A stretch of 64,000 bases of DNA, taken from the IMG/VR virus record IMGVR_UViG_3300014205_000006, positions 1-64,000 of that record; one strand, given 5' to 3'. This stretch comes from a virus. Its lineage: Duplodnaviria; Caudoviricetes. Every line of letters begins with the position of its first letter. Within the stretch, counting starts at the first letter, position 1. Made by a program: the position numbers and the translations under genes. This document shows, in pieces, positions 12,105 through 55,192 of the stretch. The notes below the pieces were generated by a model. It had not been told where the DNA came from. It was given only the letters and a program-made list of their open reading frames with translations, and searched no databases.

Positions 12105-12178
12105 TGGCGGGGGCGGCAGGAATCGAACCTGCTACAGCCGGTTTTGGAGACCAGCCCGCTTACTCCAGAGCCACCCCC
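12105..12178 (-). tRNA. tRNA-Trp(CCA) with atypical D-arm
   Basis: Acceptor GGGGGTG/CGCCCCC, anticodon loop CTCCAAA, T-arm GCAGG-TTCGATT-CCTGC, encoded 3' CCA. Confidence 0.8.
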
Positions 12179-12194
12179 ACGCGGGGCGACCGGG

Positions 12195-19524: not shown

Positions 19525-21327
19525 CTAGTGGTCCGAGTCATCCTCACCGACGATGGGAATCTCGCCCTGCATCGCCGCCTTCCAATCCTTGCGTGACCAG
19601 CGGCGGAACAGGGCCGTCTCCGTGCCGTCCTGAACGGCGTCGCCGAGCGCCTCACGGCCCTTCATGACGTGGTACACGACCTGCTCGAAGGTGTCGAGGA
19701 CGTTCATCGTGTAGACGACAGGGCGGCGCGACTGTCCGCCCCGGTGCAGTCGTCCCTCGCGCTGCTCGATCATCTTCGCGGGGTTCCAGAGACAGTCGTA
19801 ATGGACCAGAGCAGACGCGCCGTAGAAATCGAACCCGTACGCCATCGCGTCGCTCGCCACCACCCAAATCTGCTCTCCGGCATTCACACGGTCGCTGATC
19901 TCCTGACGCCGCTTCACCGGTGTGCCGCCGTGGAGGTACACGACCTCGTGACGAGTCCGCGCGGCGAGCGCCTCATAGATGCGCTCGGCGGTACTCGTCC
20001 ACTGGCTGAACATCATCACCGAATCGGAGTCATGCGGTTCGAGCAGTTCGAACAGCGCATCCATCTTGGAGCCCTCGACCGGATACTTGTCGTGGACGAT
20101 GTTCGGTGAATTGAGGAACTGGCGCAGCCGGAGCGTCTGGACGAGCGGGTCATCCTTCGAGTCGCTGCCGGTCGTGGCCAGCCACAGGAAGAAGTCATCG
20201 CACATCATGTTGTACCAGCGACGCTCCTGCGGCGAGAGTTCCACGTCAACCATGACGGGCACCTTCTCGGGCAGTTGCGGCATCAAGACCTCTTTGCGCC
20301 GCCGGACGATGTAGGGCGCGATGATCTCGTTGAACTCGGGGAGCGTCTGCCAGTTCGTCCCGACCACGTGTCCCCAACGGTCTGTCTGGAGGAACTTGTC
20401 GCGGAACGCGGTGAAGTTCCCGAGCAGACCGGGACGGAGGATGCCGCCCACGAGGTTGTAGACGTCCTCAAGGTGCATCTCCAGCGGCGTCGCCGTCATG
20501 CCGGTGAGCCCGACCTCGGTGCGAATCGCTTGGAGACGCTTGTGAGTCTGTGACTGTGAGTTCTTGCCCTTCGTGAACTCGTCGGCGAACACCTTCACCC
20601 AGTCGCGCGGCACCCATGGCTTCCCCCAGTCATGCCGGAGGTACAACTCATAGCCGACCACCTTGATCGGCGTCGGGAGTTCCCAGAGCGCGCGGCGCTT
20701 CTTGTCCGACCCCTCGATGACGGTGACGAGTTCGTCCACCTGTGCATCGTCAAGGCCGAAGTGAATCTTGTACTGCGACCGGATGTTGAGGCGCAAGCCC
20801 GAGGGAACAACCCACAGGATGGAGTTGGGCCCGACGATGTGGCCGCCCGCTTGGTGGGTGAGAATCGCGTCGAGGGTCTTGCCCGTCCCCACCGGGTCGC
20901 CGAGGAGCGAGCCGCCCTCAATCGTGTTGAGCATCCGCTCGGCGACCTTCTGGTAGCCACGGATGTCGGGCGTAACGATGCCCGGCGGGCGCTCCCAGTC
21001 GGGAAGGTCGAGCAGGAAGGCGAGGTCAGCGACCTTGTCCGCCGCCGCCCGCATGCGCTTGAGGCGCGCGTTCAACACCGGCTCGATCAACACGTCGCCG
21101 AGGGCGGCGAGTTTCGTGGCCAGTCCGTTCGCATGGTCGATGGGGATGGCCCAGTGCTTCAAGCCTGGCTTCCACGTCCGGCCCGGCGTGGCCTTCGTGA
21201 CGCGCAAGGCCTCCTCGAAGGCGGCGCTGTTCTCCCAATCGAAGGTGAGGGAAGCGTGGGTTGCGGACAGTTCGCGAAGGGTGAAGATCACGCGTGCACC
21301 GGGCAGTTCAAGATCAATTCCATCCAT
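19525..21327 (-). CDS. SNF2-family helicase/ATPase with N-terminal HARP-like region
   Basis: GDPVGTGKT, ADEF, MTATP, MFSQW, WNPAKM..QREGRLHR. Confidence 0.85.
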   Translation of the reverse strand: MDGIDLELPGARVIFTLRELSATHASLTFDWENSAAFEEALRVTKATPGRTWKPGLKHWAIPIDHANGLATKLAALGDVLIEPVLNARLKRMRAAADKVADLAFLLDLPDWERPPGIVTPDIRGYQKVAERMLNTIEGGSLLGDPVGTGKTLDAILTHQAGGHIVGPNSILWVVPSGLRLNIRSQYKIHFGLDDAQVDELVTVIEGSDKKRRALWELPTPIKVVGYELYLRHDWGKPWVPRDWVKVFADEFTKGKNSQSQTHKRLQAIRTEVGLTGMTATPLEMHLEDVYNLVGGILRPGLLGNFTAFRDKFLQTDRWGHVVGTNWQTLPEFNEIIAPYIVRRRKEVLMPQLPEKVPVMVDVELSPQERRWYNMMCDDFFLWLATTGSDSKDDPLVQTLRLRQFLNSPNIVHDKYPVEGSKMDALFELLEPHDSDSVMMFSQWTSTAERIYEALAARTRHEVVYLHGGTPVKRRQEISDRVNAGEQIWVVASDAMAYGFDFYGASALVHYDCLWNPAKMIEQREGRLHRGGQSRRPVVYTMNVLDTFEQVVYHVMKGREALGDAVQDGTETALFRRWSRKDWKAAMQGEIPIVGEDDSDH

Positions 21328-21344
21328 TCCTGCCCGATGCACGC

Positions 21345-21600
21345 ACGACGCTGGCCGGCACCCGCGTCGCTTACGAGGGAGAGGCGACGGGCCGCAGGGT
21401 TAAGCCCATCGCCCCTCCCCGGTCTGTGCGAGTCCGCCCTGTCCCGCTAGGATTTCAGGGCGGACTCGCGTGACGGTTCACGGTCTTGTCGCTTCGCGCC
21501 TACAGTGGGCCGTGACCCCGCCCGGCGCTGAATCCGCAACTCACCGTGGTTGCCCACTCTCCCGTCAATCCTCGGCGGTGCCAATCGCCGGGGCTTCCTT
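21345..21600. ncRNA. Structured non-coding region (long 5' leader or sRNA)
   Basis: At least five hairpins, including a perfect 14-bp stem 21428-21441/21456-21469; directly downstream of promoter P3. Confidence 0.45.
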
Positions 21601-21602
21601 CA

Positions 21603-21631
21603 ATTCTACCTCGCGTCTCGTACCGCGTCTA
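21603..21631 (-). promoter_or_regulatory. Leftward promoter P3 (TAGACG-17-TAGAAT)
   Basis: Conserved spacer motif. Confidence 0.75.
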
Positions 21632-21713
21632 GGCGGGGCGACCACGACCATCGGATGCGGCGACGGAACGCGGTTGCGGCAGTTGTCGCAGACCTTGCCG
21701 TAGGGGAGTGGCC

Positions 21714-52870: not shown

Positions 52871-53435
52871 GCCGGTCGGTCGGTCGATACGGTCGATGGA
52901 ATACGCGCTGCCCTATGCTTGCTGGCTGGAGTACCTGATTTGGCCCCATGGCGCGCCATGAGGCGGAACACTAAATCAAATGTGCCTCTAGACCGCCAGA
53001 AATCTTACCCAGCAGGCAATGGACTTCCGGGCCTAATTCTGACATATGTCTTAAATGGCGCTGATAATCACGAACTCCTCGCCGCCATGACCCCGTTCCC
53101 CGTGTAGCAGATCGGCGAACCGAGCCCGTACGCAACTCACAGATCGGCGGAAGCACGCTTGTCAAATTTGCGCTTGTGAAGTGCGTCCGGCTGAAGAGAA
53201 GCGACGACAGATAGAACCGGAAGCCCGACACCCCGCCCCTTCCGTCTGACCGTTCCGCTCATTCAGAACACGATTTCACCCGAGCCTGCCCCGTCGCCCA
53301 TTGAAGACCTGCTTTTGACATGTGCGCCCCAGATGTGAGCTGGCAGCCCGTACGCGAGGCGGCCCCATGGGTGATGGCGCTACCCTCGGCGAGGCTCGCA
53401 TCGTGACGAGCACGGAGCACGGCAGGAGCGGCACG

Positions 53436-54044
53436 ATGGGTAAGAAGCGGACGCGCGTGGCCAACGACCTCGCCCGCTATGACGACGTGAACATCGAGGT
53501 CTACCGCCTGAGGCTGCTCGGCCTCACCGACCCGGCCATCGCCAAGCGCCTCTCTCTATCTACGCGGCAGATTCCCGCCGCCGCCCGGCGCGGGGAGGCG
53601 CTCGTCCAGCACGTTCAGGAAGGCGATGTGCTTGATGCGAGGCGGAGAGCCATTGCCCGCCACGAATACCTGATGTCCCAGCACTTCGCTAATCACACCC
53701 TGCTCCGCGACCGGATAGGGGAGGGGGTAGGGGACGCCGAGCCCGACCCGGCGAAGCCGCCCCCGCTCCCGCTCCTCGCGCACGACCTCGTTGAGCTGGT
53801 GAATGCGGACACGAAGGTGCTACAGGCGATTGGCGCTGAAGGGGCTGCTATCGAGGGCCTCCAAGGAGCCGCCCCGAGTAGGGGAGAGCAGGGCACGCCC
53901 GCTATCACGAACAACATCCTCATCGCCCTGCCGAGCGGGGAGCAGGTGCCTATCGCCGCGCTCTCCGGGCCAGACCTCGACGCCGCCATCCTCGCTCTGG
54001 AGGCCGGGGAGGACGTGATCGAAGGCGAATTCACCCCGGAGTAG
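53436..54044 (+). CDS. Putative terminase small subunit
   Basis: N-terminal HTH (LR.LGLT...IAKRLSLS), coiled middle, ITNNI and C-terminal VIEGEF; AGGAG RBS; flanked by non-coding DNA. Confidence 0.5.
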   Translation: MGKKRTRVANDLARYDDVNIEVYRLRLLGLTDPAIAKRLSLSTRQIPAAARRGEALVQHVQEGDVLDARRRAIARHEYLMSQHFANHTLLRDRIGEGVGDAEPDPAKPPPLPLLAHDLVELVNADTKVLQAIGAEGAAIEGLQGAAPSRGEQGTPAITNNILIALPSGEQVPIAALSGPDLDAAILALEAGEDVIEGEFTPE

Positions 54045-54429
54045 GGTGCCAGTGTCCAAAAAAGCCAGCAAAACACTGGCAATGACACGCTCGGGATAAG
54101 CGAAGCAATACAGCGTATATATGCTACCTCGCCCACACACGTGGTAATACGCTCGTACGAATACACATCTTGCTGGCTCTCCCACGCCAAGCCATGACCA
54201 AAGCCATCATCCGCGCCGTTTCGCACATCGCACATGCGAGGTAGCGCTGGCCCCGCGCAGTAGCGTGCCAAATTTCCGTCAAAATGAACATGGTCGCCGC
54301 GCCCTCGCCGGACGGAGCCGAGCCTTGGCGGTAGCGGGCCGGGCCTTCAGGATTTTGCCACGAGCCGGTCAGCGCCTTGCCAAAACCGCTTCAAATTTTG
54401 CCATACATCCGGGCGAATTTGGGGTGGAT

Positions 54430-54474
54430 AGTAGTAGCGCGATTATCCGGATGGGAGTAGTATCGCGATTATCC
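54430..54474. repeat. 19-bp direct repeat AGTAGTAKCGCGATTATCC x2
   Basis: 54430-54448 and 54456-54474, one mismatch. Confidence 0.7.
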
Positions 54475-54534
54475 CCGGCGAACCCCTCAGGCTCGAAACA
54501 GGAGCCCGTAGCAGGGCAAGCGGTGGGGAGCGGA

Positions 54535-54652
54535 TGCCGGGCGGGGCTCGTGGAGCCCAATGGTAGTGGCGGCGCTTCCCTGCTTCTCCCTCGTGGAGGA
54601 TTTCAGGGAGGCGAGGTGTGGCGGTTCGAGTCCGCCCGAGCCCTGCCCGGCA
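54535..54652 (+). ncRNA. tRNA-like non-coding RNA
   Basis: 16-bp terminal stem, D-like loop AATGGTA, elongated anticodon-position arm, perfect T-arm GGCGG-TTCGAGT-CCGCC, no encoded CCA. Confidence 0.65.
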
Positions 54653-54979
54653 CGGCGACTAGCACGGTCACGTCCGGGTCGCTCCCGGCGTCTCCCCGTC
54701 TTGTCGCCGTTCCGCCGAGGGACAGGACGGGACGCTGAAGCGGGCTGAGAAGATCAGCACTGGCCCGCTACTGCGATCACCAGTCTCCCGTCCGGCCCTC
54801 GGCAGTAGACCGTCAGCCACCCGTTGAAATGGGTGATGCCTCGGTAGGCGGGTGGCGGCGCAGTCGGGGTCTTGGTCTGGGGCGCGAGGCTCGTGTTGCG
54901 TCGCCTCATCAGCGGTAGCGCACGACGCGCTCCGGGCCAAGGCCCCGGCGACCACGAGTGATTTGGGGAGGCACGCCCG

Positions 54980-55192
54980 ATGGAGCACCCGAGGTACGCG
55001 GACGGGACGCCGATGCTGATCGGCGACAAGGTGAGGCTCCACGCCTCTGTCTATCCCGCCTTGGAGCGTGAGGTGGACGGCCACATCAAGGGCATCGAGT
55101 GGCACCGGGGCGAGGGCGAGCCGTGGCTCACGATGAGCGAGCACCCGGCGCTCGTCATCCGCACCGGCGACGTGGTCGGGAGGGCGGAGTGA
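54980..55192 (+). CDS. Small SH3-like hypothetical protein
   Basis: GGGGAGG RBS; RYADG.....GDKV.L. Confidence 0.55.
   Translation: MEHPRYADGTPMLIGDKVRLHASVYPALEREVDGHIKGIEWHRGEGEPWLTMSEHPALVIRTGDVVGRAE

Follow-up and report, generated by a model that had tools for sequence, protein, structure and literature searches.

Two questions are raised by positions 54535–54652 of this phage genome, where a 118-nt element lies on the + strand: (i) is the element a real RNA structure under selection and (ii) what could be the role of an RNA that keeps the elbow of a tRNA, has no anticodon and has its acceptor end sealed. The window analyzed here (64,000 nt) covers the opening 64 kb of a virus record that is complete at 101,277 bp, with 66% GC and a 123-nt terminal overlap. 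Encoded in the genome are DnaE, DnaB, primase, RecA, ThyX, TerL, a Mu-type portal and siphovirus-type tail proteins, and this gene set identifies it as a tailed bacterial phage. The closest DnaE among cultured phages, that of mycobacteriophage PLot, is only 36% identical.

The element is housed in a 935-nt gap. On its upstream side is an orphan HTH gene (53367–54044, + strand, 225 aa, with an N-terminal HTH) that is TerS-like by layout only; sequence and family searches gave no homologue or family match supporting a TerS identity. On its downstream side, a 70-aa ORF (54980–55192, + strand) begins a run of small rightward genes that extends to tRNA-Gln (59891) and TerL (61201), the latter 6.5 kb from the element. 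The phage has two true tRNAs, tRNA-Trp and tRNA-Gln, both with an encoded CCA, and the nearest of them is 5.2 kb from the element. We also note that tRNA-Trp(CCA) (12105–12180, − strand) has an atypical D arm, scores only 31.5 bits against RF00005 and fails a strict U8 chassis filter. A coding role for the element can be rejected, since every overlapping ORF scores as non-coding, with negative codon scores compared with a median of +0.24 for called genes.

The stems and loops listed in the earlier note are all present in our folds. The ends are joined by a 16-bp stem (54535–54550 with 54637–54652; 15 Watson–Crick pairs and one G-U, predicted pairing P 0.92–0.96), which resolves into a 7-bp acceptor (54544–54550/54637–54643) and a 9-bp clamp (54535–54543/54644–54652). 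The tRNA chassis proper runs from G1 to U73 (54544–54644), with G1-C72, G2-C71 and G3-C70 in the acceptor, followed by U8. In the clamp, the leader is joined to positions 73–81, the first pair being a G-U that involves U73, and the discriminator is occupied together with the places where a CCA would stand. Positions 73–76 read UGCC and are base-paired within the clamp; CCA is not encoded.

The interior of the chassis follows the tRNA order. The hairpin that had been called D-like is a D arm (54555–54570) with a canonical 7-nt loop carrying A14, A15, G18, G19 and A21, and its stem can be refined to 3 bp plus a closing pair across the bulged T54567. At the anticodon position is a 41-nt arm (54573–54613) composed of 10 bp (54573–54582/54604–54613, P 1.0), a 1×3 internal loop, 6 bp (54584–54589/54595–54600) and a 5-nt loop, and no anticodon loop is formed. 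This arm has no antisense complement of at least 13 nt elsewhere in the genome. A class-I-like variable linker (A44 G45 G46 U47, one extra nucleotide and U48) and a canonical 5-bp T arm (54620–54636) complete the chassis, together spanning 54614–54636. The acceptor and T stems form a 12-bp helix of correct tRNA geometry, the elbow bases are intact and the tertiary bases U8, A14, A15–U48, G18, G19, U54, U55, C56 and A58 are all kept. Four irregularities are seen: two extra nucleotides after U8, the bulge in the D stem, one extra nucleotide at position 26 and one in the variable loop. The 40 chassis pairs contain no mismatch, a count that is partly circular because the helices were taken from predicted folds.

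For the first question, the element folds with a z-score of −4.6 against dinucleotide shuffles, and a chassis composed of a perfect T arm, a 7-bp acceptor and U8 occurs in none of 100 order-4 Markov genomes and twice in the real genome, as the element and as tRNA-Gln. Taken together, the shuffle z-score and the Markov-genome counts exclude chance. After correction for GC, none of the fixed 120-nt tiles across the genome is as stable as the element, a comparison that sets a chosen window against fixed tiles. ViennaRNA alone prefers neither the D arm (P 0.09) nor the T arm (P 0.21), and places the cloverleaf at −73.3 kcal/mol, as against −75.3 kcal/mol for a minimum free energy fold that mispairs the D and T regions; this energy model ignores tertiary contacts. 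We consider it very probable that the element is a real RNA structure maintained by selection.

A tRNA-like fold could also be inherited and not selected, as in a decayed tRNA pseudogene or a recently acquired relic with no current function. The four chassis irregularities, the singleton status of the element and a 'possible pseudogene' label from ARAGORN (see below) would be in keeping with such a history. Decay, however, would neither create a flawless 9-bp clamp and lengthen the arm by 11 pairs nor leave every tertiary base intact, and the structured modules adjacent to the element are equally ordered and strand-asymmetric. On this evidence we regard a relic as unlikely.

The identity of the element as a decoding RNA can be addressed directly from its parts. 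The chassis contains the 7-bp acceptor, the D arm, the 5-bp T arm and the conserved tertiary bases of a tRNA. Neither ARAGORN at default settings nor Rfam at the gathering threshold makes a call. A canonical decoding tRNA is rejected on two counts: in place of a 5-bp anticodon stem and a 7-nt loop with U33 and a purine at 37 there is a 16-bp interrupted arm with a 5-nt loop, and neither the discriminator nor a CCA end is free. The best weak Rfam matches are to tRNA-Sec (RF01852, 21 bits, cut-off 47) and to YrlA (17 bits, cut-off 69). The first is rejected, as the UCA anticodon loop, the 6-bp D stem and the long variable arm of tRNA-Sec are all lacking. A tmRNA is likewise rejected, in agreement with the earlier note: the element has G3-C70 and not G3-U70, U73 and not A73, a D stem, no CCA and no tag ORF, and an ARAGORN search of the genome found no tmRNA. 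By inspection, an HDV-like (theta) ribozyme after the 3′ end is also rejected: the candidate P1 is not followed by GG, and a junction with the catalytic C is missing. The earlier description of a non-decoding tRNA mimic, with an intact elbow and both functional ends altered, stands, and we hold it with high confidence that the element does not decode.

Splicing could in principle restore a decoding tRNA, and an intron-containing tRNA had been named as a finding that would overturn the mimic interpretation. At a 90% threshold, ARAGORN reports a tRNA-Leu(CAG) with a 24-nt intron, also labelled a possible pseudogene; at 60–70% its output is uninformative. This intron call is non-specific, because 62 of 180 arbitrary deletions in the arm also yield default ARAGORN calls, with at least nine different anticodons. 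Leucine tRNAs are identified by A73 and, in bacteria, a long variable arm, and arginine tRNAs by A20 and a purine at 73. The U73, U20 and short linker of the element fit neither. The element sequence contains no bulge–helix–bulge motif and no self-splicing core, and the phage genome has no splicing endonuclease (PF01974), RtcB (PF01139) or PF09414 ligase. Introns are reported in phage tRNAs (PMC6784885), which together with the 90% call is what speaks for a Leu(CAG) or Arg(UCU) tRNA spliced in the manner of Lak phage tRNAs. Even a spliced product would still have its maturation blocked by the clamp, and we judge this explanation highly unlikely.

Some features of the element are those of a processing substrate. 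An RNase P/Z processing signal was suggested in the earlier note; if t-element-like (or mascRNA-like), it would be cut at the chassis by host RNase P or RNase Z, freeing neighboring RNAs or maturing the operon mRNA. The 12-bp acceptor and T helix has the correct geometry for this and the elbow is intact; the element lies inside a putative polycistronic leader, with no terminator on the + strand before 58014, and RNase P cleaves a Mycobacterium smegmatis YrlA whose stem is 7 bp long (PMC4201824). The single-stranded leader and trailer of such signals are, however, replaced by the 9-bp clamp (P > 0.9), and there is no 3′ RCCA. RNase Z requires a single-stranded 3′ trailer, and that of the element is paired. 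Bacterial RNase P is hindered when the proximal leader pairs with the 3′ end, an anti-determinant that often lowers its rates by orders of magnitude (PMC10731613), and for this reason the processing-signal proposal is disfavored. We consider it quite unlikely.

The element does not stand by itself in the gap. From about 54470 to 54950, over a stretch of 0.5 kb that is non-coding, the + strand can be divided into six stem-closed modules separated by 0–5 nt, of which the tRNA mimic is the second. Module 1 (54472–54529) is a stem-closed hairpin domain. Module 3 (54652–54710, z −4.5) is an interrupted hairpin with a superficial likeness to the YrlA terminal stem, lacking the GNCGAAN0-1G motif. Module 4 (54714–54803, z −5.3) has an 8+8-bp stem with a branched top, and module 5 (54808–54860) a 4+10-bp stem. 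No stem in the genome runs longer without interruption than the helix of module 6 (54863–54949), whose 24 bp include five G-U pairs and are free of mismatches. In shuffles, modules 3, 4 and 6 each have z-scores between −4.5 and −7. The predicted energy of module 6 is −65 kcal/mol on the + strand and −42 kcal/mol on the − strand, and that of the whole array is −286 (+) and −256 (−) kcal/mol, with the G-U pairs working on the + strand only. We infer from the strand asymmetry of module 6 that selection has acted on an RNA and not on a DNA inverted repeat. Another intergenic region that is rich in structure is found at 21292–21713 on the − strand, downstream of a strong promoter, with 17–20-bp hairpins, a z-score of −4.0 and no T arm.

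The best + strand promoter candidate in the gap is a weak sigma70-like site at 54435–54463 (TAGCGC, 17 nt, TAGTAT), whose predicted start at ~54470 falls just before module 1. It scores 0.9 bits, compared with 13–48 bits for strong phage promoters. The strong class has 11 copies, defined by TAGACG, a 17-nt spacer ending in CGAGG and a TAGWAT-like −10 element; seven lie on the − strand of the window (12495, 21631, 23917, 26198, 27994, 30327 and 32384) and the others elsewhere in the genome (69405, 71803 and 71896 on the − strand and 72009 on the + strand). No copy of a second promoter class is found in the 935-nt gap. Two 17-nt direct repeats, 26 nt apart at 54432–54474, overlap the candidate promoter, occur nowhere else in the genome and may be operators. 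The region between the HTH gene and this site (54050–54420) is an AT-richer spacer with short A/T tracts beside GCCA motifs, and is possibly a packaging or protein-binding region of the DNA. Most simply, the array would form the structured 5′ part of a long rightward transcript, possibly cut into pieces.

This arrangement brings a cis-regulatory leader into consideration, in which the array, including the tRNA-like domain, would control read-through or translation of the downstream operon. Its position at the head of the operon is suggestive, as is the occurrence of a similar acceptor and T module in a non-coding right-end array of the Arthrobacter phages TripleJ and Kukla. In the full-length fold, moreover, 54690–54698 of module 3 pairs with the ribosome-binding site of the ORF at 54980 (P 0.82). 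This long-range pairing is only a prediction, though, and module 3 also forms a strong local hairpin that would compete with it; an alternative fold is 18.5 kcal/mol worse, and there is no terminator to switch. Control in cis seems improbable.

The placement of the element after an HTH gene with a TerS-like layout had also led to the suggestion of a packaging-associated RNA, which could be similar to the phi29 pRNA or could instead reflect a pac or cos element acting at the DNA level. The A-tract-rich spacer at 54050–54420 offers a possible packaging site. Against this, the upstream gene has no TerS-confirming match, TerL lies well downstream, no comparable element is seen at any of 82 loci surrounding related TerL genes and the G-U-rich stems point to a function in RNA rather than DNA. 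pRNA is known only from phi29-type motors. The suggestion is unsupported and the chance that it is correct is very small.

Homologues were sought by several routes. Searches of IMG/VR, metagenomes and GTDB genomes with exact and gapped patterns matched only ordinary tRNAs or unrelated long-armed mimics, and blastn in phages and plasmids found no homologue of the element. A covariance model built from the single sequence (R1) gave no homologue over ~140 loci. Relatives reached through TerS, TerL, RecA and the major capsid protein (MCP) gave none either, the best of them being 57% identical in TerL (a 2.8-kb contig) and ~65% in MCP. The tip hairpin of module 3 (54674–54696) is matched over 22/23 nt at two loci (L230:4282–4304 and L231:2676–2698), apparently in intergenic sequence downstream of a TerL relative; the match is not extendable and may be due to chance.

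Analogues, on the other hand, are readily found. A loose D-loop/T-loop pattern recovers phage genes by the dozen in which the tRNA body is intact and the middle is aberrant and long, and four loci (L023, L143, L144 and L165) have a single extended arm as in the element. Long-armed analogues are common in phage contigs, and tRNA-like candidate RNAs have been noted in phages in a large survey (PMC10690425). Among 442 distinct chassis from the fetched loci, a pattern-selected sample and not a census, 41 exceed 92 nt; CCA is encoded in 22% of these and in 61% of those of normal length. In the same sample, pairing beyond the acceptor does not exceed 3 bp in any other chassis, as compared with 9 bp in the element.

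Several groups of tRNA-like genes seen in these searches deserve mention in their own right. Eleven loci (L019, L029, L036, L046, L050, L051, L063, L075, L083, L098 and L099) form a family with a shared acceptor, D loop and T arm and a 49–72-nt middle that differs in almost every copy. Clusters of two to three consecutive non-canonical tRNA-like RNAs occur at L023:38–535 and L144:6655–6862. By inspection, the − strand of L008 (283–373) resembles a tRNA-Asn(GUU) split inside the anticodon by a structured insert of ~43 nt. In five phages related through MCP (~40%), an RNA of ~79 nt directly follows the major capsid gene (L135:2244–2322, L136:3334, L137:3329, L139:1932 and L140:about 965). It is similar to the tRNA-like domain of tmRNA, with G3-U70, A73, a stemless D loop, a long central helix and a T arm; its sequence varies while the stems are apparently kept, and no Rfam family matches at threshold.

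For the second question, the best reading of these data is that what was once a tRNA gene now specifies an RNA domain that is under selection, does not decode, resists tRNA processing and presents its elbow, a reading to which we give an even chance. The fold would still be under selection, with the positions for decoding and charging lost. The ancestor may perhaps have been Cys-like, as would be hinted at by U73, G1-C72, G2-C71 and the GCC D stem. Transcription would proceed from ~54470, making the element part of a structured 5′ RNA of ~500 nt at the head of the rightward operon, and the chassis would adopt an L shape. With the 9-bp clamp in place, neither RNase P nor RNase Z nor the CCA-adding enzyme would be able to mature the element, and the RNA would never be charged and never enter the ribosome. 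The stable domain could then persist in the leader or be excised at the module junctions.

The least certain step in this reading is the last, in which a nuclease-resistant scaffold would show its elbow to host tRNA-binding proteins, as a stabilizer or as a sponge. A role as such a scaffold or decoy is offered tentatively, at somewhat less than an even chance. The decoy for anticodon nucleases put forward in the earlier note is doubtful as worded, the element having no anticodon loop to cut; a decoy for elbow-binding proteins is possible. If the element is expressed, then the elbow, rather than charging or decoding, is indicated as its working surface. A more speculative extension, which we think unlikely, is that the array (54470–54960) makes up a single large RNA of the phage, or several small RNAs transcribed together, and that an unprocessable mimic within it inhibits or sponges host enzymes that read the elbow, RNase P or a defense protein that senses tRNAs being examples, and that clamped modules of the TripleJ and Kukla kind recur in phage operon leaders. 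The weight of the case is limited by an uncultured phage, a singleton element and the abundance of such mimics in phage contigs.

Among known systems, the YrlA RNAs (RF02553; PMC4201824) are similar to the element in being tRNA mimics that keep the D/T elbow and have a closed acceptor end. They differ in being circularly permuted, with the T arm before the D arm, and in having a loop-closed acceptor, a Ro60 motif and an adjoining Ro60 gene, the YrlA genes lying within 4 kb of it (PMC4201824). The arms of the element are not permuted, as had been pointed out in the earlier note, and its acceptor is not loop-closed; a YrlA or Y RNA identity is rejected. A Y-like RNA that binds host Ro60 could be argued from the sub-threshold YrlA match at 54593–54713 (E 1.8), but this match draws on the T arm and vanishes when the downstream part is searched alone, the GNCGAAN0-1G motif is lacking, the complete genome has no TROVE (Ro60) gene and a Y-like closing fold costs 12.6 kcal/mol. 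Such an assignment is extremely improbable. The tRNAs of Lak megaphages, which carry 'enigmatic introns' (PMC6784885), resemble the element in that additional sequence occupies the anticodon region of a tRNA body. They have intron-less alleles; for the element, no splice solution is specific, the identity elements do not match as a set and the ends are sealed.

The kind of RNA to which the element belongs is already known, as the tRNA-like stable RNAs of phages T5 (RNA1 and RNA2) and T4 (RNA C); what sets the element apart is the clamping of the ends and the leader position. The T5 RNAs are entered in GenBank AY543070 as misc_RNA, 'tRNA-like stable RNA with unknown functions', and the role of these RNAs and of T4 RNA C and RNA D is still listed as unknown (PMC3014915, PMC9697503). 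Our literature search, which most subscription papers lay outside, found no paper describing the element RNA or characterizing T5 RNA1/RNA2. Like the element, RNA1 and RNA2 have an unpermuted acceptor, a D arm, an enlarged arm at the anticodon position and a T arm; they are of 125–144 nt, lie back to back with other stem-closed RNAs and fall below the Rfam tRNA cut-off. They depart from it in retaining base pairs in the variable arm, in belonging to a large tRNA cluster and in lacking a 9-bp clamp; the element occupies an operon leader with no tRNA closer than 5.2 kb. T4 RNA C (species 1, rnaC) retains an acceptor-like stem and a T arm, as does the element, but a long hairpin replaces its D arm and a genomic ACA follows; the fold obtained for RNA D has no comparable cloverleaf. 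Model R1 misses the T5 and T4 RNAs, and alignment with the T5 RNAs shares the T loop only. Judged from these comparisons, the element is an analogue of the T5 and T4 RNAs and not a homologue.

The closest parallel to the setting of the element comes from TripleJ and Kukla, where an unannotated tRNA-like module consisting of an acceptor and a T arm is found at 2466–2535 (L251/L252). Its T stem is the same as that of the element and its acceptor is similar; an outer helix closes it and CCA is not encoded. The hairpin array that contains it is non-coding, spans 0.5 kb and follows an HTH gene at the right end of the genome. The module differs in that the D and anticodon arms are merged into one hairpin, the clamp is interrupted and the HTH genes are unrelated. 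No Rfam family is matched by the module, and the downstream part of the array is common to 34 Arthrobacter phage records. The module would appear to be an analogue, its likeness falling short of demonstrated homology. These phages are in culture, and their modules offer a more practical test system for a clamped, elbow-presenting RNA.
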